Positions 20,350 through 64,000 of a DNA stretch of 64,000 nt are shown here, piece after piece; within the stretch, counting starts at the first letter, position 1; each line of letters starts with the position of its first letter. The translations under genes were made by a program, and so were the position numbers. The notes under the pieces are model-generated. The model saw only the letters and a list, made by a program, of their open reading frames with translations. It did no database searches and was not told the origin of the DNA. Source of the stretch: Candidatus Gottesmanbacteria bacterium (lineage in GTDB: Bacteria; Patescibacteriota; Microgenomatia; UBA10105; UBA927); assembly GCA_963701185.1 (NCBI GenBank), contig OY969569.1, forward strand, positions 447,054-511,053. The letters run 5' to 3'.

Positions 20350-20363
20350 ATATGTACCTCCTG

Positions 20364-20449
20364 TGCCTAGGGCGGGAATCGAACCCACATGAGCTTTTAT
20401 GCTCACAGCTTTTTGAGAGCTGCGCGTCTACCAATTCCGCCACCCAGGC
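20364..20449 (-). tRNA. tRNA-Leu (anticodon CAA) with long variable arm
   Basis: Minus-strand sequence GCCTGGGTGGCGGAATTGGTAGACGCGCAGCTCTCAAAAAGCTGTGAGCATAAAAGCTCATGTGGGTTCGATTCCCGCCCTAGGCA. 7-bp acceptor stem, GTTCGATTC T-loop, anticodon loop CTCAAAA. Confidence 0.8.
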
Positions 20450-21822: not shown

Positions 21823-22386
21823 TTATTCCAAAATAACTACTTGCATTTGCTCGGGCAGTTTATCGCGGGTTACGGTAAGTTTAGATTGCGGAACAACATC
21901 CTCTTTGCCGATTTCTTTCAGGAATGCGGTTAGTTCGTCGCGATGATAGCACATGGGAATAACGACAGACGGTTCTATTTCATTAATAACGGCAACGGCA
22001 GATGAACCGACGGGAACCATAAGAATATCAACACCGTCCAAGCTATCCACTTCTTCTGCGGATAATGCACGTCCTAAATCACCCAGATGAACAATGGAAA
22101 ATCCGTCAACTTCAATCCGATACATCGTCGTCTGTTCTATCTTACGGCCGATAACACCGACTCCCTTGATTTCATATTCTCCGGGACCGTTAACGATATA
22201 TGCCGTACCTTCAACCTGCCCGGTTGCGTTATGATCCGGATGGTCGTGTGAAACGGTCACGATATCAGCGGTTATATGCTTGGGAAATTTTAATCCTACG
22301 TGTTCCGGCGTATACGGATCCGTCACAACGGTGGCAGATTTTCCTTTCAAACGAAACGCGGCATGACCGAGATAGGTGATCTCCAT
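21823..22386 (-). CDS. MBL-fold metal-dependent hydrolase (UPF0173-like)
   Basis: MEITYLGHAAF, HDHPDH motif. Confidence 0.6.
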   Translation of the reverse strand: MEITYLGHAAFRLKGKSATVVTDPYTPEHVGLKFPKHITADIVTVSHDHPDHNATGQVEGTAYIVNGPGEYEIKGVGVIGRKIEQTTMYRIEVDGFSIVHLGDLGRALSAEEVDSLDGVDILMVPVGSSAVAVINEIEPSVVIPMCYHRDELTAFLKEIGKEDVVPQSKLTVTRDKLPEQMQVVILE

Positions 22387-22427
22387 GTTGCAATTTATAA
22401 CAGATTTAGCTATCCTTAGCAACACTC

Positions 22428-22871
22428 ATGAATAAAGACGCGATACTGGCGACACTTATCGGGTTCGGCATCGGGCTCCTCATTACCGGTATTCTTCTTA
22501 TTGGTCCGAATATTACAAAATCATTGCCGAACATAAATCTCCCGACTATTTCGTTTTTGCAGCCGAAGCAAAAACCGACACCGACCCCCACGCCAACTCC
22601 TTCGCAGTTTGGCCTCACGATTGAGAGCCCGCTTGCCGACGCGATTGAAAATACGAGCGACCTCCTTGTATCCGGCGTCACGACCCCGGGATCAACTGTC
22701 GTCATCGCCGGATCTGTTGACGATACGGTAGAGCTGGCACAGGCTGACGGAAAATATGCCGGAAAAATAACGCTCGCCGAGGGGAAAAATGATATCATCG
22801 TCACCGCATACCAATCACAAAAACAGATGACACAGACGATGACGGTATATTACACGCCGGAAAGTTTATGA
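22428..22871 (+). CDS. hypothetical membrane-anchored protein with PT-repeat linker
   Basis: N-terminal TM, KPTPTPTPTPS linker, beta-rich C-domain. Confidence 0.4.
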   Translation: MNKDAILATLIGFGIGLLITGILLIGPNITKSLPNINLPTISFLQPKQKPTPTPTPTPSQFGLTIESPLADAIENTSDLLVSGVTTPGSTVVIAGSVDDTVELAQADGKYAGKITLAEGKNDIIVTAYQSQKQMTQTMTVYYTPESL

Positions 22872-22886
22872 CCAGGAAGTGAAATT

Positions 22887-23579
22887 ATGAAAAAAATAGT
22901 ATTAGTTATTTGTTCTCTTTTACTGACAACATCCGCGTACGCGGCCACATCAACGCCGTCGGCGCAGCAAAAACTGGATACGCTCAAGGACCGTCTTGCA
23001 TCAGCCGCGACACAACTAAAACAGTCGCAGAAACGCGCGGTCTTCGGGACGGTAAAAACAACGTCCGTATCAACCATTACTATCTCCACAAAAACCAATG
23101 ATTTAAAAATAGAGCTGACCGATACCATTTCCGTATTTGAGCTCATCAAAGGCAAACGGACCGAACTCACGACCGATCAGGTAACCCGCGGCGATGACGT
23201 TGTCGTATTTGGCGATTATGATACGAACCTGGATATTCTCAAGGCACAGGTTATCTTTATTCAGGGCAGTATACCGGAGCGGATAACCGGCACAATCACG
23301 GCCGTCAGCAAAAAAGACTACACGATAACGATAGCAACACCGGAGGAACAATCCTATATCGTCGATTTTGAAACAACGACGAAAAATTTTAATTGGACAA
23401 AAGATACAGGCGTCCAAAAAGCGGGATTTACTCAATTAATTGTCGGCGACACCATCCATGTATTGGAAACGCAGAATCCGAAAATTGCCAACCGCGTATC
23501 GGCCCTGCGGATCCTCGATATCGGCAACCTGACCGGCGTCACGCCGACAACCAGACCAAGTCCAACCCCGACGCCTTGA
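22887..23579 (+). CDS. hypothetical secreted protein
   Basis: Signal peptide MKKIVLVICSLLLTTSAYA; C-terminal PSPTPTP. Confidence 0.45.
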   Translation: MKKIVLVICSLLLTTSAYAATSTPSAQQKLDTLKDRLASAATQLKQSQKRAVFGTVKTTSVSTITISTKTNDLKIELTDTISVFELIKGKRTELTTDQVTRGDDVVVFGDYDTNLDILKAQVIFIQGSIPERITGTITAVSKKDYTITIATPEEQSYIVDFETTTKNFNWTKDTGVQKAGFTQLIVGDTIHVLETQNPKIANRVSALRILDIGNLTGVTPTTRPSPTPTP

Positions 23580-23610
23580 TGCGGATATATCAGCGTGTTA
23601 CTATAGTCAT

Positions 23611-23994
23611 GTGAAAAAATTCCGCATGGATCAATTTCAAACAGGCACCCCGTCATCGTATCCCTCATCGGCAATGAACGAGTTGTTCCGGGCAATTCTG
23701 TCACTGAAAAACGAAACCGAGGCCCAAAACTTTTTCCGGGATCTGCTCACCATGCCGGAACTGAAGGAATTTGCCAACCGCTGGCAGATAGTGAAGCTCC
23801 TGTACAAACGGGTTCCGTACGGAGAAATTGCCGCGAAGCTTAACGTATCCACAACGACGGTCACCCGCGTCGCCTATTGGCTGAATAACGGATTCAACGG
23901 GTATAAAGAAGTCGCCGACCGTACGTTTGAAACAAAATTTAAGGATGCGCATACGCCTCATCAGCCGCGGCTCCGCGGCAAACGCTGGATGTAA
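23611..23994 (+). CDS. TrpR-like YerC/YecD family regulator
   Basis: NFFRDLLTMPELKEFANRWQIVKLLYKRVPYGEIAAKLNVSTTTVTRVA. Confidence 0.6.
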   Translation: MKKFRMDQFQTGTPSSYPSSAMNELFRAILSLKNETEAQNFFRDLLTMPELKEFANRWQIVKLLYKRVPYGEIAAKLNVSTTTVTRVAYWLNNGFNGYKEVADRTFETKFKDAHTPHQPRLRGKRWM

Positions 23995-23995
23995 C

Positions 23996-24024
23996 TTGAC
24001 ATGAGCATGTTACCATGTTAACAT
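23996..24024 (+). promoter_or_regulatory. Candidate promoter TTGACA-N17-TAACAT (extended TG) overlapped by the palindrome CATGTTAACATG
   Basis: Read directly; lies between the regulator stop and the small peptide ORF. Confidence 0.4.
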
Positions 24025-24040
24025 GCTAATATAAGGAAGT

Positions 24041-24130
24041 ATGAATATGTCTGAAATATCACGTACATCTCCGTTAGGCATAATAGCTGTTTCTTCGGTT
24101 TCTTCCTGCGCGCGTCATCATAGCCGCTAA
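24041..24130 (+). CDS. 29-aa (27 aa from the 2nd ATG) peptide ORF; candidate precursor peptide
   Basis: AAGGAAG RBS; MNMSEISRTSPLGIIAVSSVSSCARHHSR. Immediately upstream of a radical SAM/SPASM enzyme. Below the ORF-track cutoff. Confidence 0.3.
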   Translation: MNMSEISRTSPLGIIAVSSVSSCARHHSR

Positions 24131-24211
24131 TATCCCGCGTGCGGCTTAGACGAGAATCTTCCCTTTCGCTCATTCCCCTCTTTACCGTCCGCAGGATGTA
24201 TTGTTCTGCGA

Positions 24212-25432
24212 ATGAAAATACCTATGAATAAGGAGCTTGATACATTTTACTCAAATACAGGAACGCTTGACGTGCGCATACAACAAACAACAGGACTAAA
24301 CGGCAAAAGTGAACTGTTGAAAACTATGCAGGGGCGCGGGCAAAATCGTGCGACGGACTTACTCCTTGAAAGTCCGTGTAATGAACGGTGCGTAGCTTGC
24401 TTTTTTCAGGAAGCCGGTGGCCCGGGGAGTATCCGCCTAACACCCGAAGTCGTCAACGACATACGGACAACCGCCGGCATATTAGGCGCGCCCGATAAAA
24501 CAATGTTCACGTTGTATCCGAAAGAAATAACCACAGCGATGCCGCTTCTTCCTGTATTTTCCGAACGTTCAGTCACAAGAACACTTACGAACGGGAAACG
24601 TCTTGGTGAACCCGGAGTACTGGAGACTTTGAAAAATGCCGGAATCCGGGATCTTATGGTTACCGTACCGGGCAACGCCTCCTCGTATGCGCTCTACACA
24701 CAAGAAAAAGAACAAACCTATGACCGGCTCTTGAATACTATCGGATCGGCTATCCGCGCGGGCTTTACTGTCGGTATTTTTTATCCCGTTTTTAGGCCAA
24801 ATATTGATGATGTGTTGGAAACGACTCTCCGTTTGCAGGAACTCGGTGTACGCGAAATAAAATTTATCCGGGTTATACCTGTCGGCGCCGCCCGAAACTT
24901 ATCTGATGACATGTTTACTGATAAGGACAGTACGCTTCAATTTTTATGTAACGTCAATAAGGCTCGAAAACAAGCGGGAAATACAATGGAGCTGACTCTT
25001 TTTGGCGGGTCATTCGGACCGAATTTTTTTGCAAAATCCATTTACCGATATCTCTCGGGTGCATCCGACCGATGGCCGGGCAGTCAATACTATTGTCCGA
25101 TGGTCAACGGACAGTTCATCGGCATCGCATTCGGTACCGGAAAGGGGTATCCATGCTTTAAAGCGTTGGCTTTTCCGGAATTAATTTCGGGAGAATATAA
25201 AAACGGAAAACTCGTACAAAAGCCGCCACTCGTAACAAAAGAAAATCTTGAAAAAAATCTCTGCGGTCAATGTTCAGAACAACAATGTACGTATCAATCG
25301 CTGTGTATGGGTGGATGCCGCATTACTGCATTTGCGTTTGCTAAACGCCGCGGAGAAGCCGATCCGCTGTACGCCGAGCAGGATGTCTGCGTCACGAAAA
25401 TTCTTGAGGAAAATCAATCAACAATAAGTTGA
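24212..25432 (+). CDS. radical SAM enzyme with C-terminal SPASM/twitch Cys cluster
   Basis: CNERCVAC (CxxxCxxC) at residues ~56-63 after a ~55-aa N-terminal extension. C-terminal CGQCSEQQCTYQSLCMGGC. Confidence 0.75.
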   Translation: MKIPMNKELDTFYSNTGTLDVRIQQTTGLNGKSELLKTMQGRGQNRATDLLLESPCNERCVACFFQEAGGPGSIRLTPEVVNDIRTTAGILGAPDKTMFTLYPKEITTAMPLLPVFSERSVTRTLTNGKRLGEPGVLETLKNAGIRDLMVTVPGNASSYALYTQEKEQTYDRLLNTIGSAIRAGFTVGIFYPVFRPNIDDVLETTLRLQELGVREIKFIRVIPVGAARNLSDDMFTDKDSTLQFLCNVNKARKQAGNTMELTLFGGSFGPNFFAKSIYRYLSGASDRWPGSQYYCPMVNGQFIGIAFGTGKGYPCFKALAFPELISGEYKNGKLVQKPPLVTKENLEKNLCGQCSEQQCTYQSLCMGGCRITAFAFAKRRGEADPLYAEQDVCVTKILEENQSTIS

Positions 25433-25480
25433 TCTGGTATTCGCGCCTGAGATTTGGTACGCTGGATACATGAAAAAAAT

Positions 25481-26698
25481 ATGATCAAAGCACAAACACT
25501 GAAAGGATTCAGGGATTTTTTGCCCGAAACCGCCATCGCGCGGCAAATGGTGACGGGAAAAATCAGGAACGTGTTTGAGCGGTACGGATTTGATCCCTTA
25601 GAAACGCCGGCGCTGGAATACGCTGAAACGCTCACGGGAAAATACGGCGGCGAGGCGGATAAATTACTCTACCTATTCCGCGATAACGGGAAACGGAAAG
25701 TGGGACTCCGGTATGACCAGACAGTTCCCCTCTCGCGGGTTATAGCCCAATATCCGCTCCTTCCCAAACCGTTCAAGCGGTATCAAATCCAACCCGTGTG
25801 GCGCGCGGAAAATACGCAGAAGGGCAGATTCCGCGAGTTTCTGCAATGCGACATCGATACCGTCGGCTCTGACTCTCCTCTTGCCGACGCGGAAATTATT
25901 GACTGTTCGCTCAATACCTTTAAACAACTCGGGTTTCCAGGTATCACCATGGATGTCAATGACCGCACGATATTCGACGACCTTAAACTAACCAAGAAAG
26001 AAATAACCATCATTGATAAACTCGATAAAATCGGCACGGATGCGGTTATTGAGGATCTGGAAGCGGGCGGAAGGAAGGACGCAAAAAAATTATTTGAATC
26101 ACTCAAGCGGGCAAAGCCGACCGAGCGCATGTGGAAAATTTTTGAGGCACTCAAACGTCTGGGGTATAAAGAAGACGCGGACTTCCGGTTCAACCGGTTT
26201 TTAGCCAGAGGTTTAGATTACTACACAAGTACGATATTCGAGTTAAAGGCAGGGGCCTATACCAGCGGATCATTGGCGGGCGGCGGACGGTACGATACAT
26301 TGATCGGACAATTTTCCGGCCAAAATTTGCCGGCCGTAGGCATTGCGTTCGGGTTTGACCGCATCATGGAAGCGATGGAGGAATTTAAATTACTCCCCCC
26401 GCAACCCACTGCCACGCAGATATTGGTTACTATTTTCTCGCCCCAACAGCTTGGCGCCGCCCTTGAACTCACGACGAAATTCCGCCGCGGCGGACTCAAT
26501 ACCGAGGTCTACGGCGACACAGAGGCGAAACTCGACAAACAGCTCAAATATGCCGATAAAAAGGGAATTCCGTATGTGGTTATTGCAGGTCCGGATGAGA
26601 TAGCACGGGATGTCATAAAACTGAAAACCATGGAAACGAAAAAACAGGAGGAACTGTCTGTCGATGAGGTTGTCGATAAGTTGACGAAGGCCTCGTAA
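25481..26698 (+). CDS. hisS: histidyl-tRNA synthetase
   Basis: Start at MIKAQTLKGFRDFLPE; class II motifs; FRRGG anticodon-binding region. Confidence 0.9.
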   Translation: MIKAQTLKGFRDFLPETAIARQMVTGKIRNVFERYGFDPLETPALEYAETLTGKYGGEADKLLYLFRDNGKRKVGLRYDQTVPLSRVIAQYPLLPKPFKRYQIQPVWRAENTQKGRFREFLQCDIDTVGSDSPLADAEIIDCSLNTFKQLGFPGITMDVNDRTIFDDLKLTKKEITIIDKLDKIGTDAVIEDLEAGGRKDAKKLFESLKRAKPTERMWKIFEALKRLGYKEDADFRFNRFLARGLDYYTSTIFELKAGAYTSGSLAGGGRYDTLIGQFSGQNLPAVGIAFGFDRIMEAMEEFKLLPPQPTATQILVTIFSPQQLGAALELTTKFRRGGLNTEVYGDTEAKLDKQLKYADKKGIPYVVIAGPDEIARDVIKLKTMETKKQEELSVDEVVDKLTKAS

Positions 26699-26706
26699 TA
26701 AGAATA

Positions 26707-26733
26707 CCAATCCCGATCTAATCGGGATGATAT
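26707..26733. repeat. Hairpin CAATCCCGATCTAATCGGGATGATATG (TCCCGATC family), intergenic hisS / EamA
   Basis: Read directly. Confidence 0.7.
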
Positions 26734-27751
26734 GATAAAAAAACTCAATACTGTCCAAAAAGCGTTTTTGGCACTGATTATTGCCAATATCATCTGGGGC
26801 GCGGCTGCGGCAATATTTAAATTAAGTCTCCAAAATATTCCCCCGTTTACCCTGGCCTTCTGGCGGTTTTTCCTGGGTGCTATGTTGATCTTCATCATCA
26901 TCGGCAAAAAAATTTACCTGCCTCTTGCCAATCGGCGCGACGGAATCCTGTTGTTTCTTTACGGATTCTTAGGCATCACCATCAACATCATCTTTTTCTT
27001 TTGGGGATTGAGGCTTACCTTTGCCATCAATTCACCGGTCATATCCAGTGCGCAGCCGATTCTGACATTGTTTTTTGCGCTTCTTTTTTTGCATGAGGTG
27101 TTTAAACTGAAAAAATTTCTCGGCATGATATTGGGAACTCTGGGCATTATCGTCATTGTTATCGAACCGCTGATTCTTCGCGGCGTCGACGGGTCGGTTC
27201 TCGGCAATATCTATCTTGTTATCGCAACTATTGCGGCAGTCGGACAAACGATCGTCGGCAAAAAAATCCTGGGCAAATACAATCCCTGGGCATTTACCTT
27301 CTGGGCATTTCTGGTCGGGGCGGCAAGTTTCCTGCCGCTGGCCTTCTACGAATATGCAACGATCCCTCATGTGTATGCCCTCTTAGATTGGCGCGGGTAC
27401 ACGGGTATCGCATACGGGGCAATTTTCAGCAGTACCCTCGGATACGGATTGTATGCATGGGGCCTGTCAAAAATTTCGGCGACCGATACGGCGATGTTTG
27501 CGTATGTCGATCCGATTGTCGGTACCGTGGCCGGAGCCCTCTTGTTGCATGAACCGATCACCTTCCCCTTTGTCGGCGGAGCCCTTCTCATTTTCTCAGG
27601 GATATTTTTAGCCGAAGGCCGCATCCATTACCATCCGATCCGGAAGTTGATCCAGTTGGGCAAGACCATTGAAGAGGCCGTTTCTGTTCCTCCCCCGCCG
27701 CGTCGTCTGGAGAAAAAGAAAGTGTTAGCTTCAATTTTCGGCAAAACGTGA
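26732..27751 (+). CDS. EamA/DMT-family transporter
   Basis: 10 TM helices, duplicated EamA halves. Confidence 0.8.
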   Translation: MIKKLNTVQKAFLALIIANIIWGAAAAIFKLSLQNIPPFTLAFWRFFLGAMLIFIIIGKKIYLPLANRRDGILLFLYGFLGITINIIFFFWGLRLTFAINSPVISSAQPILTLFFALLFLHEVFKLKKFLGMILGTLGIIVIVIEPLILRGVDGSVLGNIYLVIATIAAVGQTIVGKKILGKYNPWAFTFWAFLVGAASFLPLAFYEYATIPHVYALLDWRGYTGIAYGAIFSSTLGYGLYAWGLSKISATDTAMFAYVDPIVGTVAGALLLHEPITFPFVGGALLIFSGIFLAEGRIHYHPIRKLIQLGKTIEEAVSVPPPPRRLEKKKVLASIFGKT

Positions 27752-62694: not shown

Positions 62695-63278
62695 CCCTTA
62701 TAAATTTTGTGGCAGGAGGAACAGACGGCTATATATTTGGCTGAGACTTTACCACGTGTCCCTACGGACAACTGCGTGGTTCCGGCGATGCGCTCGGTAT
62801 GCGCGGCTTTTCCCCCGCATTTGACGCAGATACTAAATTGTTCAATACATTCGTCTGCCATCTTCATGAGTGTTTTTGTCGCTCCGTATTCCTTCTTCCG
62901 ATAATCGTAGATAAGACCGTTCACATAGACGTCAATCCCCGACTCCTGTAATTTTTTGACGACCGCGATGCATTCCTGCTTCGGGAAAAAATGCACGGCG
63001 TCGATAATCACTTTTTTAATCCCCTGCCCGCCGACGTACTCCAGAATTTTCCCGGGTTTTTTCATGTCGATGTAGATAACCGGCAGCGGCCGTTCGTCGT
63101 GCGATGTGGTATGCCCCATGCCTCCGTTTGAAACCGCTTCTGCTTTGAAACAAAGCGTGCTAAAACCTACATTGGACAAAACGGTAAACAGCGTGAGAAG
63201 TTTTGTTGTTTTTCCGGCAAACATGGGTCCGGCAATCACCGTCAACCTGCCTTTTGTCGAAGTTTTACTCTTTGCCAT
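62691..63278 (-). CDS. tdk: thymidine kinase
   Basis: GPMFAGKTT, C-terminal Zn ribbon CVKCG...CSSCH. Confidence 0.9.
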   Translation of the reverse strand: MAKSKTSTKGRLTVIAGPMFAGKTTKLLTLFTVLSNVGFSTLCFKAEAVSNGGMGHTTSHDERPLPVIYIDMKKPGKILEYVGGQGIKKVIIDAVHFFPKQECIAVVKKLQESGIDVYVNGLIYDYRKKEYGATKTLMKMADECIEQFSICVKCGGKAAHTERIAGTTQLSVGTRGKVSAKYIAVCSSCHKIYKG

Positions 63279-63909
63279 GTCGTTTATTCAAAATATTTAT
63301 TACGATCTTCCAAATAGAAGACGCGACGTCTTGGAGAGATTTTGCCGCGTCCACAACAACATACCGCGACGGATTATTTTTTGCAAGAGTCAAATATCCC
63401 GCGCGTACCCGCTCGTAAAAATCCTTTTGCTGCATATCCAGCCGGTCTTTTTGTTTGGTGCTTTTTCCTAATCGGGCAAGCCCTACGGAGGGGGGCGCAT
63501 CGAGAAGAATCACCATATCTGCTTTCACGCCGTTGACCGCCAACTCGTTAAGCGCTGTAATTTCTTCAGCTCCCAAATTTCTCCCGTATCCCTGATAGGC
63601 AATACTTGAGTCCACAAACCGGTCCGAAATGACAATTTTTCCCTCTGCGAGCGCCGGCGCAATCGTCTCGCGGACATGCTGGGCGCGCGATGCGGCCATG
63701 AGATACGCCTCCGCGACCGGATCCAAATCCACGTTTGCCCTGTCGTGTGTGATGACGCGGATTTGCTCGCCGATCCGTGTTCCGCCCGGCTCGCGCGTCA
63801 CCACGACGTTCATGCCTCTGTCGCGCAGCCGGTTTGCCAGCATCTGAACCTGAACGGACTTCCCCGCTCCTTCACCGCCCTCAAATACGATAAACAGGCC
63901 GCGTTTCAT
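63265..63909 (-). CDS. tmk: thymidylate kinase
   Basis: FIVFEGGEGAGKS, DRF motif. Confidence 0.9.
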   Translation of the reverse strand: MKRGLFIVFEGGEGAGKSVQVQMLANRLRDRGMNVVVTREPGGTRIGEQIRVITHDRANVDLDPVAEAYLMAASRAQHVRETIAPALAEGKIVISDRFVDSSIAYQGYGRNLGAEEITALNELAVNGVKADMVILLDAPPSVGLARLGKSTKQKDRLDMQQKDFYERVRAGYLTLAKNNPSRYVVVDAAKSLQDVASSIWKIVINILNKRHGKE

Positions 63910-64000
63910 ACAAAAATCATCCTAATGAAAAATGGGATAAAGTGCAAGCGGAGAAATAATATCTTATCGTGTTAACACGGTGATATATTTATGAATATCA

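Follow-up and report, generated by a model that had tools for sequence, protein, structure and literature searches.

A likely histidine-responsive leader and attenuator, rather than a RiPP precursor, ahead of an orphan radical-SAM gene and hisS in a Gottesmanbacteria-like bacterium

Positions 23611-26698 of the stretch analysed here (the window, 64,000 nucleotides of Candidatus Gottesmanbacteria contig OY969569.1) hold a short Cys/Ser-rich open reading frame (ORF) and a hairpin ahead of a gene for a radical S-adenosylmethionine (rSAM) enzyme of the SPASM type. Such an arrangement resembles a cluster for a ribosomally synthesised and post-translationally modified peptide (RiPP), which is how an initial annotation had read it. 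We consider it likely instead that the region forms the start of a histidine-responsive operon (its control region and first gene) in a Gottesmanbacteria-like bacterium of the Candidate Phyla Radiation (CPR), with the ORF encoding the leader peptide of an attenuator. The operon would probably run from hisR through a promoter/operator, a His leader peptide with its attenuator and the rSAM/SPASM gene to hisS and eamA, and we reject, with good confidence, the 29-aa ORF as a substrate of the enzyme. The organism is probably a histidine auxotroph. Two known kinds of control, the repressor HisR (YerC) and His leader peptide attenuation, would here be joined on a new target, hisS, and would reach a new phylum, the CPR bacteria; a repressor and an attenuator on one promoter would mirror the E. 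coli trp operon. Recognising amino-acid-sensing leaders of this kind should lead to fewer false RiPP calls. In the literature we found no account of this rSAM family, nor of HisR controlling hisS.

The features of the region are as follows.
23611-23994, + strand: hisR-like gene for a TrpR-type repressor of the YerC/YecD (HisR) family, 127 aa (Pfam, NCBIfam)
23996-24024, + strand: predicted sigma-70-type promoter, -35 TTGACA (23996-24001), 17-nt spacer, TG-extended -10 TAACAT (24019-24024), 10 of 12 matches
24004-24029, either strand: putative operator, read from the sequence as an inverted repeat, a 12-bp palindrome and three TG(T/C)TA(C/A) units at 8-bp spacing, over the -10 box
24041-24130, + strand: putative leader-peptide ORF, MNMSEISRTSPLGIIAVSSVSSCARHHSR, 29 codons, with Shine-Dalgarno sequence AAGGAAG (24033-24039), His codons CAT CAT (24116-24121) and stop codon (24128-24130)
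24106-24144, + strand: predicted helix X, CTGCGCGCG (24106-24114) with CGCGTGCGG (24136-24144), enclosing the His codons and stop and excluding hairpin A
24122-24146, + strand: predicted hairpin A (segments 1:2), AGCCGC (24122-24127) with GCGGCT (24141-24146), stop codon in the loop, duplex -11.7 kcal/mol
24171-24195, + strand: C/U-rich tract CATTCCCCTCTTT (24171-24183), then ACCGTCCGCAGG (segment 3), complementary to GCGG..GACG of segment 2
24190-24210, + strand: predicted hairpin B (segments 3:4), CGCAG (24190-24194) with CTGCG (24206-24210), -11.5 kcal/mol
24224-25432, + strand: radical-SAM/SPASM enzyme, 402 aa (maximal ORF from 24212, 406 aa), CxxxCxxC at 24377-24400, seven conserved C-terminal Cys at 25094-25390
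25454-26698, + strand: hisS, histidyl-tRNA synthetase (HisRS) with anticodon-binding domain, probable start ATG 25481

The short ORF behind the ribosome-binding site AAGGAAG, noticed in the initial annotation, is borne out by comparison: chance could produce a 29-codon ORF by itself, but not one kept in frame in 13 of 14 related leaders. Related leader peptides were found by intergenic alignments and six-frame reading. Their N-termini are unalignable and their lengths range from about 20 to 38 aa, the only constant features being tandem His codons and hairpins around the stop codon. The leaders of loci L001, L003, L015, L022, L028, L029, L035 and L036 end in frame with HH, two to four further residues and the stop. 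Two or three His codons are present in 11 of the 14, the exceptions being L010 (one His), L025 (His-Tyr) and L008 (no start codon), and both the His and the Ser codons show synonymous variation. Neither Pfam nor NCBIfam returned a match to the window's leader peptide. The leaders read as follows, each up to its stop codon.
L003: ..AVSAVSSCVLHHRLI
L001: ..SAVSSSCGLHHRLI
L015: ..GVSSCTSSLHHTLN
L022: ..GISSCSSLLHHTLT
L028: ..AVSSCASRFHHLSSI (His codons CAU CAC)
L029: ..GLSSCVLHHSYAI
L035 (without the rSAM gene): ..AVSPRALHHSR
L036 (without the rSAM gene): ..AVFPRALHHTL
L037 (without the rSAM gene): MRTFAYLTSVINHHHSLSRLAEGSA (HHH; unrelated sequence)
L026 (rSAM locus): MNILKGQSSWHHITIRTVGRVFVQ (HH; unrelated sequence)
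L025 (rSAM locus): MSIQSTNSYWHYTSLCVGGFIVA (HY; unrelated sequence)

The leader ORF stands always directly behind the promoter, ahead of whatever gene comes first: the rSAM gene in the window, a phosphoribosyltransferase (PRTase)-HAD fusion in L015 and L022, a PRTase-like gene in L010 and L028, and a gene for a 99-aa or 293-aa protein of no known type in L035 and L037. The gene hisS lies downstream in every leader-bearing locus and is the only constant gene. Three syntenic loci that lack the rSAM gene (L035, L036 and L037) keep the promoter, the operator, the His-codon ORF, the hairpins and, further on, hisS. Conversely, a deletion in L008/L014 took the leader's start codon and its AVSS codons and left the rSAM gene intact, and the leader ORF is absent at the rSAM loci L011/L012, L017, L018 and L030. 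The rSAM genes of L009 and L010 overlap a uridine-phosphorylase-like gene upstream, that of L017 follows a recombinase gene after a 62-bp gap, and that of L030 has a 16-bp gap. The co-occurrence of peptide ORF and enzyme proposed in the initial annotation thus breaks down in both directions, and orthologues without an upstream peptide ORF are just what had been named beforehand as speaking against a precursor. An ORF without the enzyme, an enzyme without the ORF and hisS always downstream leave the RiPP link unsupported and lead us to prefer control by histidine.

The RNA around the leader's stop codon can fold in alternative ways. Helix X appears in the minimum free energy (MFE) fold of the free window leader and has GC-rich counterparts in L035 (CCGCGCGC/GCGCGCGG), L036 (CCGUGCGC/GCGCGUGG) and L015 (CGUGCAC/GUGCGCG). 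Hairpin A begins in the window at the base right after the His codons, and other leaders place different sequences at the same position (AUCGCCU/AGGCGAU, CCUCAAC/GUUGAGG, CUCAGC/GCUGAG, CCUACGC/GCGUAGG and CCGCGG/CCGCGG). These are perfect 6-7-bp stems of six different sequences that start no more than 2 nt from the last His codon; individual shuffle P values of 0.010-0.21 combine by Fisher's method to about 2e-4. Such per-sequence stem statistics were used in place of column-wise covariation or a covariance model. Hairpin B, whose end lies 1 nt short of ATG 24212 and 13 nt short of ATG 24224, is also kept with other sequences (GGAA/UUCC and CGC/GCG in L035, CGCA/UGCG in L028, UUUGGGA/UCCCAAA in L029). 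The C/U-rich tract is kept in all main-group leaders and, in L015, L022, L035, L036 and L029, reaches across hairpin B to pair with the first gene's Shine-Dalgarno sequence.

Successive segments of the leader are therefore mutually complementary, with window duplexes predicted thermodynamically at -11.7 (1:2), -9.0 (2:3) and -11.5 (3:4) kcal/mol and the same three pairings available in L037, L026, L025, L001 and L015. By its sequence, the L037 leader looks like a textbook attenuator: segment 1 (UCCCUCUCC) follows three His codons, and segment 2 (GGAAGGGAG) pairs either with it or with the 5' arm of a terminator (ACUCCCU..AGGGAGU and U7), the duplexes amounting to -12.0, -10.7 and -13.7 kcal/mol. 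L026 and L025 carry canonical terminators (CCCGCC..GGCGGG and U7) with antiterminator duplexes of -19.0 and -15.8 kcal/mol. A clear intrinsic terminator lies between leader ORF and first gene in L037, L026, L025, L001, L003, L015/L022 and L010. Whole-leader MFE folds with the ribosome footprint masked gave no clean switches, because such folds do not model co-transcriptional order.

A separate observation concerns the loop of hairpin A in L008 (= L014), where a palindromic element of about 20 bp, CCTGCCTTGCCGGCAGGCAGG, is inserted exactly (L008:3840-3862). The near-identical CCTGCCTGCCGGCAGGCAGG occurs upstream of a promoter in an unrelated locus (L005:3735-3757), and the element looks like a small mobile palindromic repeat.

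The control region would also include a protein layer. The YerC/TrpR-family helix-turn-helix gene that the initial annotation placed immediately before the peptide ORF is well supported: the 127-aa product matches Pfam PF01371 Trp_repressor (E 5.9e-23) and passes NCBIfam TIGR02531 yecD_yerC (65.9 bits against a cut-off of 42.2), while it stays under the cut-off of the TrpR equivalog model (35.3 against 67.25 bits). At E <= 1e-10 it has 241 relatives, far more than the enzyme has. Among solved structures it is closest to 3G1C, a TrpR-like protein of E. eligens (E 5.4e-15), which has been treated as HisR and whose structure was used for HisR (PMC9413887). In the same study YerC was identified as HisR, a TrpR-family histidine repressor with 20-bp palindromic operators, and histidine boosted HisR DNA binding in vitro, as shown for the Ruminococcus gnavus protein only (PMC9413887).

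The palindromic operator likewise holds at 24004-24027, where AGCATGTTA (24004-24012) pairs with TAACATGCT (24019-24027). This inverted repeat and the perfect 12-bp palindrome CATGTTAACATG (24014-24025) both overlap the promoter, and tandem units TGTTAC, TGTTAA and TGCTAA follow one another at 24008-24029 with 8-bp spacing. In a scan of the window for TGTTAACATG with at most one mismatch, sites cluster at the operator. The promoter layout TTGACA-17-TAnnAT recurs at 12 related loci, the TGTTAAC core is kept in every related promoter, and the operator over the promoter is conserved at 12 loci upstream of hisS-containing operons. In L015 the operator is a 30-bp perfect palindrome of TTAAC units; in L022 it reads CACTTTAGCATGTTAACATGCTAAAGTG and carries CACTTTAG..CTAAAGTG, similar to the outer half-sites in the published HisR consensus.

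A second palindrome with the same TGTTAAC core, CGTGTTAACACG, lies at 63968-64000, divergent from a thymidylate-kinase-like gene (63265-63909, - strand). It is followed at 63992 by ATGAATATCA, whose opening codons (MNI..) are as in the leader ORFs and at which the window stops. Together with the ATGAATATC ORF, the site may represent another operator of the HisR type, equipped with a leader of its own.

At L011 and L012, where the rSAM gene and hisS form a pair, the position is taken by a T-box-like leader. The full RF00230 model is matched at L011:3364-3529 (23.7 bits, E 0.0026); all that is left of Stem I is a hairpin, with the His codon CAC in its 7-nt loop GUCACGA. The element resembles the T-box family in its conserved T-box sequence AGGAUGGGACCGC, its terminator and its place upstream of an aminoacyl-tRNA synthetase operon, and differs from it in the short-hairpin Stem I; the window has no such element. 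A second, strong terminator hairpin stands just ahead of the rSAM start (L011:3553-3605, also in L012). Judged by their sequences, three different sensors of histidine or tRNA(His) appear to hold the same position before operons whose common member is hisS.

We infer a repressor layer from protein family and position, and a leader-peptide switch from anatomy and comparison. In the first layer, the YerC/HisR-family repressor would bind the tandem TGTTAAC operator and shut the promoter under plentiful histidine, because the operator covers the -10 box. In the second, the 29-codon ORF would be translated, and when His-tRNA(His) is scarce the ribosome would stall on the two His codons (24116-24121) and thereby mask segment 1, which is the 5' arm of hairpin A, together with helix X's 5' strand. 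The freed, G-rich segment 2 would then pair with the C/U-rich tract and the 5' arm of hairpin B, opening hairpin B and the structure that sequesters the Shine-Dalgarno sequence ahead of the first structural gene; stalling of this kind would also prevent termination in those relatives that have a U-run. With sufficient histidine the ribosome would reach the stop codon in the hairpin loop and leave, whereupon hairpin A (or helix X) and hairpin B would form and expression would be attenuated. The window copy lacks a U-run, and its read-out is for that reason probably translational or Rho-dependent. The enzyme would be co-expressed with hisS under histidine limitation.

Each component has known counterparts. 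In the HisR regulons of Firmicutes, Actinobacteria and Proteobacteria, as here, a protein of the YerC/YecD type goes with a palindromic operator in the promoter, the regulator gene adjoins a histidine-related operon, and the same phyla also hold T-box and His-leader control (PMC9413887). The present case differs in an operator core of TGTTAAC every 8 bp against the published cacTTTA-N6-TAAAgtg, in a 127-aa regulator with an N-terminal extension against proteins of fewer than 100 aa, and in a target of hisS and variable cargo genes against genes of histidine biosynthesis and transport. CPR bacteria lie outside that study, and histidine is here a putative effector.

His leader attenuators (E. 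coli hisL, RF00514) resemble the present leader in a short ORF whose consecutive His codons immediately precede alternative hairpins, and resemble L037, L026, L025, L001, L003 and L015 also in the U-run terminator and antiterminator. The present leader shows no sequence or covariance-model similarity to them, its last hairpin in the window abuts the start codon with no U-run behind, and its promoter would also be under a protein repressor. In bacilli, His leaders have been predicted upstream of a hisS paralogue and hisZ, along with T-box/leader-peptide swaps at hisS (PMC2965389), and hisS-family targets and T-box replacement in a sister lineage are common to those cases and the present loci.

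The E. coli trp operon is under dual control by a TrpR operator and the trpL attenuator. Like it, the present system has a TrpR-fold repressor on the promoter, a leader with exactly two tandem regulatory codons near the stop and four mutually complementary RNA segments; unlike it, histidine would be sensed, and the operon's genes are those of an aminoacyl-tRNA synthetase and accessory proteins, not of a biosynthetic pathway.

Several observations weigh against the histidine-control reading. The window leader has no more than two His codons, against three to seven in classical his leaders, and L010 has a single His and L025 His-Tyr. Hairpins A and B are present in the window, but no U-run follows hairpin A there or in L035, L036, L028 and L029, and the sole terminator-like call is weak (24186-24198), which sets the window copy apart from canonical intrinsic-terminator attenuators. 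In 8 of 10 leaders segment 2 forms its best duplex with the C/U tract, though none individually beats dinucleotide shuffles; per-sequence MFE z-scores are unremarkable (-2.7 to +1.6); and RNAalifold on a MAFFT alignment of nine leaders returned four pairs only, column-wise covariation failing because the hairpins shift register between clades. Neither RF00514, which was built from proteobacterial leaders, nor any other Rfam family matched positions 22000-27000 at E <= 1, and at the gathering threshold the 15 loci yielded tRNAs only. The T-box match of L011/L012 is far under the Rfam gathering score of 93, a low score that we ascribe to the reduced Stem I. The operator consensus is unlike the published Firmicute HisR motif cacTTTAnnnnnnTAAAgtg, and hisS is not among the HisR targets of that paper, in which the term occurs 0 times (PMC9413887). 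Finally, a Cys stands just before the His pair in 7 of 7 main-group leaders of rSAM-containing loci and in 0 of 2 rSAM-less sister loci.

This last contrast bears on the RiPP or peptide-cofactor alternative, in which the 29-aa peptide would be a precursor, the rSAM/SPASM enzyme would act on its C-terminal ..SSCxxHH.. core, for instance introducing a thioether or C-C cross-link, and the hairpin after the ORF would merely set the precursor-to-enzyme stoichiometry. A conserved C-terminal block behind a variable N-terminus is indeed reminiscent of mycofactocin- or PQQ-type precursors, and the L026 and L025 leaders are rich in aromatic residues (SSWHH, SYWHY). The Cys is replaced by an Arg codon in L035 and L036 (reading SPR and FPR), which come from different clades (HisRS identity is 74-78% for L035 with the window clade and 59% for L036 with L015/L022). 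The association nonetheless reaches only a one-sided Fisher p of ~0.07 over 13 leaders, uncorrected for phylogeny and with two contrasts only, and the Cys codon sits in helix X (window 24106-24114), where the change UGC to CGC preserves pairing. Against a precursor also stand the persistence of ORF, promoter and hairpins without the enzyme in L035, L036 and L037, and of the enzyme without the ORF in L008/L014 (start codon lost), L011, L017, L018 and L030; the want of room directly upstream of the rSAM gene in L009 and L010; and the two nucleoside-metabolism genes between ORF and enzyme in L015, L022, L010 and L028. There is neither an RRE (RiPP recognition element) domain or partner nor a locus-specific protease/export pair, and Foldseek places the sugar- and nucleoside-modifying DesII and BlsE level with peptide enzymes. 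We regard this alternative as very unlikely.

Even less likely, in our estimate, is an untranslated cis-regulatory RNA that binds a ligand or protein, or responds to HisR or a PRTase-like protein, with the ORF and its His codons incidental. Pairing in helix X, hairpins A and B and between the C/U tract and the Shine-Dalgarno sequence accounts for much of the conserved block, L008/L014 retain the RNA block without a start codon, and some of the operons carry proteins of the PRTase fold, which is also the fold of the RNA-binding attenuator protein PyrR. Incidental coding is, however, hard to reconcile with a start codon, an open frame and a stop in the hairpin loop in 13 of 14 leaders whose N-termini are unalignable and variable in length, with synonymous changes within His and Ser codons, or with three unalignable leader types (main group, L037 and L026/L025) that all put His codons just 5' of segment 1; nor was there an Rfam match. 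Least likely of all is a tnaC-type nascent-chain sensor, in which ..A(L/R)HH.. would stall the ribosome near the stop in response to a small molecule and mask a C-rich Rho-loading site: the residues before the stop and the stop position are conserved, as is a C-rich, G-poor tract 40-50 nt downstream (24171-24183), and several leaders, the window's among them, lack a U-run, but hisS induced by free histidine would be regulated in the wrong direction, intrinsic terminators and antiterminators are clear in L037, L026 and L025, and the residues flanking HH differ among the three leader types.

Under the histidine-control reading, the enzyme is the product of the operon's first gene in the window. 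The initial annotation had it start at 24212 with 406 aa, which is indeed the maximal ORF; homologues begin at MNKELD, however, so the start is probably 24224 and the product 402 aa. The gap from the stop of the small ORF to 24212 is 81 nt, not the 79 bp given earlier. The radical-SAM motif stands as described (CNERCVAC, 24377-24400), with C52, C56 and C59 invariant in an alignment of 18 family members, and the C-terminus is Cys-rich as claimed, although the first Cys of the segment singled out there, CGQCSEQQCTYQSLCMGGC, is not conserved. Seven C-terminal Cys are invariant in the 18 members (C291, C311, C350, C355, C361, C365 and C389), spaced C-x4-C-x5-C-x3-C plus three further Cys. This is the full SPASM complement for two auxiliary [4Fe-4S] clusters, and from its sequence the enzyme is predicted to carry three [4Fe-4S] sites. 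An AlphaFold model from the 18-member alignment is confident, with pLDDT 82 and pTM 0.83. The N-terminal extension, put at ~55 aa and thought long enough for peptide recognition, measures about 40 residues and forms three short helices in the model, with no strands before residue 43. It is too small for an RRE and, lacking strands, is by the model not one; Pfam and NCBIfam give no RRE match N-terminal to the core, and no small PqqD-like gene is present at the window locus.

As the initial annotation had noted, sequence alone does not assign the enzyme to a family: it reaches no characterised one. Pfam scores fall just under cut-off (Radical_SAM 28.3 against 29.5 bits, SPASM 23.3 against 27), the radical-SAM, SPASM, MoaA, AhbD and PapB matches in Pfam and NCBIfam are all sub-threshold, and all NCBIfam equivalog models are missed by hundreds of bits. 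An anaerobic sulfatase-maturating enzyme (anSME), which the initial annotation had left possible, is rejected: its model gives 13.7 bits where 349 are required, and the window has no sulfatase-motif ORF. A sequence search of solved structures gave MoaA as its best and uninformative match (1e-7), and the Foldseek neighbours, in which SkfB, SuiB, PqqE and anSME are interspersed with DesII and BlsE, whose substrates are sugar nucleotides or nucleosides, point to no single substrate class. With the solved SPASM enzymes compared (anSME 4K36, SkfB 6EFN, SuiB 5V1Q, CteB 5WGG, PqqE 6C8V, BlsE 7VOB and DesII 8HZV) the enzyme shares the partial TIM-barrel radical-SAM core with CxxxCxxC and the C-terminal seven-Cys auxiliary-cluster domain. 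It shows only 9-17% identity to them and has no RRE, C-x4-C-x5-C-x3-C in place of their C-x2-C-x5-C-x3-C, a conserved 40-residue helical N-terminal extension (ELDTFxTNTGTLDERIQ) and no conserved precursor, sulfatase or sugar-nucleotide partner.

The family is very rare: 24 proteins among 5.8 billion clusters, 186 matches at E <= 1e-3 among 1.84 billion representatives, 6 loci in 185,579 species genomes and 16 loci in a metagenome collection. Loci with source titles come from metagenome-assembled genomes named Gottesmanbacteria or Patescibacteria group, or labelled Gammaproteobacteria/Pseudomonadales. We regard the enzyme as a rare orphan of the SPASM radical-SAM superfamily rather than a demonstrated peptide maturase, and, as a very rare family within the operon's variable cargo, it is a candidate for new chemistry.

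At the Microgenomates-type loci the rSAM gene has a histidine setting, behind a His leader or His T-box and next to hisS, sometimes with a HisC-like transaminase. More distant members of 32-43% identity occur instead in contexts of lysine, diaminopimelate or peptidoglycan peptides.
L018:1065-11636: Orn/Lys-decarboxylase-like, VanX-like, protein of no known type, rSAM, DapE/ArgE-family, DapF-like, PepT-like, protein of no known type, lysyl-tRNA synthetase (LysRS; 506 bits, above cut-off)
L017:5995-9859: rSAM, LysRS-like (388 aa), .., S66 LD-carboxypeptidase
L033:150-3797: rSAM, AlaDH/PNT-like, MurE
L005:3800-5233: rSAM preceded by leader ORF MDNTLSLIAFNKKAKKTARGGVL, rich in Lys, with segments for a terminator and an antiterminator (-10.3, -17.6 and -12.9 kcal/mol)

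The tie to aminoacyl-tRNA synthetase and amino-acid operons of two amino acids fits a role in amino-acid supply under starvation, although context does not identify the reaction. We consider unlikely the specific proposal that enzymes of this family are induced by starvation and linked to whichever amino acid the aminoacyl-tRNA synthetase of their operon uses; if true, it would give reduced-genome symbionts a new oxygen-independent radical enzyme for amino-acid salvage. Within that proposal, one possibility is a dehydrogenase or epimerase in the style of anSME/BtrN acting on a histidine precursor or derivative, and a more exotic one is that the Cys-bearing His leader is regulatory leader and enzyme substrate at once.

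Downstream, the hisS product matches Pfam tRNA-synt_His (E 4.6e-40) and HGTP_anticodon (E 7e-17), and no terminator-like site lies between the rSAM gene and hisS on the + strand of 25432-25600. The conserved block runs dnaB (- strand), a gene of the metallo-beta-lactamase (MBL) fold (- strand), two secreted proteins, the TrpR-like gene, the variable genes, hisS, eamA, rpmE and prfA. The slot between leader and hisS thus appears to be a regulated insertion slot, whose cargo includes rSAM, PRTase-like, nucleoside hydrolase or phosphorylase, HisC-like transaminase, DUF6282 and M24 peptidase genes, and this variable cargo points to genes that such auxotrophs would switch on at histidine shortage. 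Between the TrpR-like gene and hisS the slot holds the following.
Window, L003, L008: of the variable genes named, rSAM only
L015, L022: PRTase-HAD fusion, RihC-like nucleoside hydrolase, rSAM
L009, L010, L028: PRTase-like, uridine-phosphorylase-like, rSAM
L009, in addition: HAD gene before the phosphorylase-like gene, M24 peptidase after rSAM
L028, in addition: HisC-like transaminase after rSAM (TIGR01141, 208 bits)
L030: two aminotransferases, rSAM
L026: rSAM, SLOG, PfkB, PRTase-like

In the rSAM-less loci L035 (5617-7542) and L037 (5631-7402) the slot contains a DUF6282 protein (E ~1e-48) and an unannotated protein of 270-293 aa, both candidates for other histidine-limitation genes. L001 (5355-7215; = L013, L019), the closest sequenced relative at 87% identity, has three genes between rSAM and hisS, encoding a 343-aa second SPASM-type protein without CxxxCxxC, a Cys-rich 168-aa protein and a DUF2007-like protein of 65-67 aa. 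The last also occurs in L003 (5232-5432) and L008 (5262-5459); as a candidate precursor it was rejected, being a DUF2007-like folded protein and absent from the window. At the other end of the block, a tRNA-Leu(CAA) gene (20363-20449, - strand) adjoins dnaB in the window, and a tRNA occupies the equivalent place in L026, L029 and L036.

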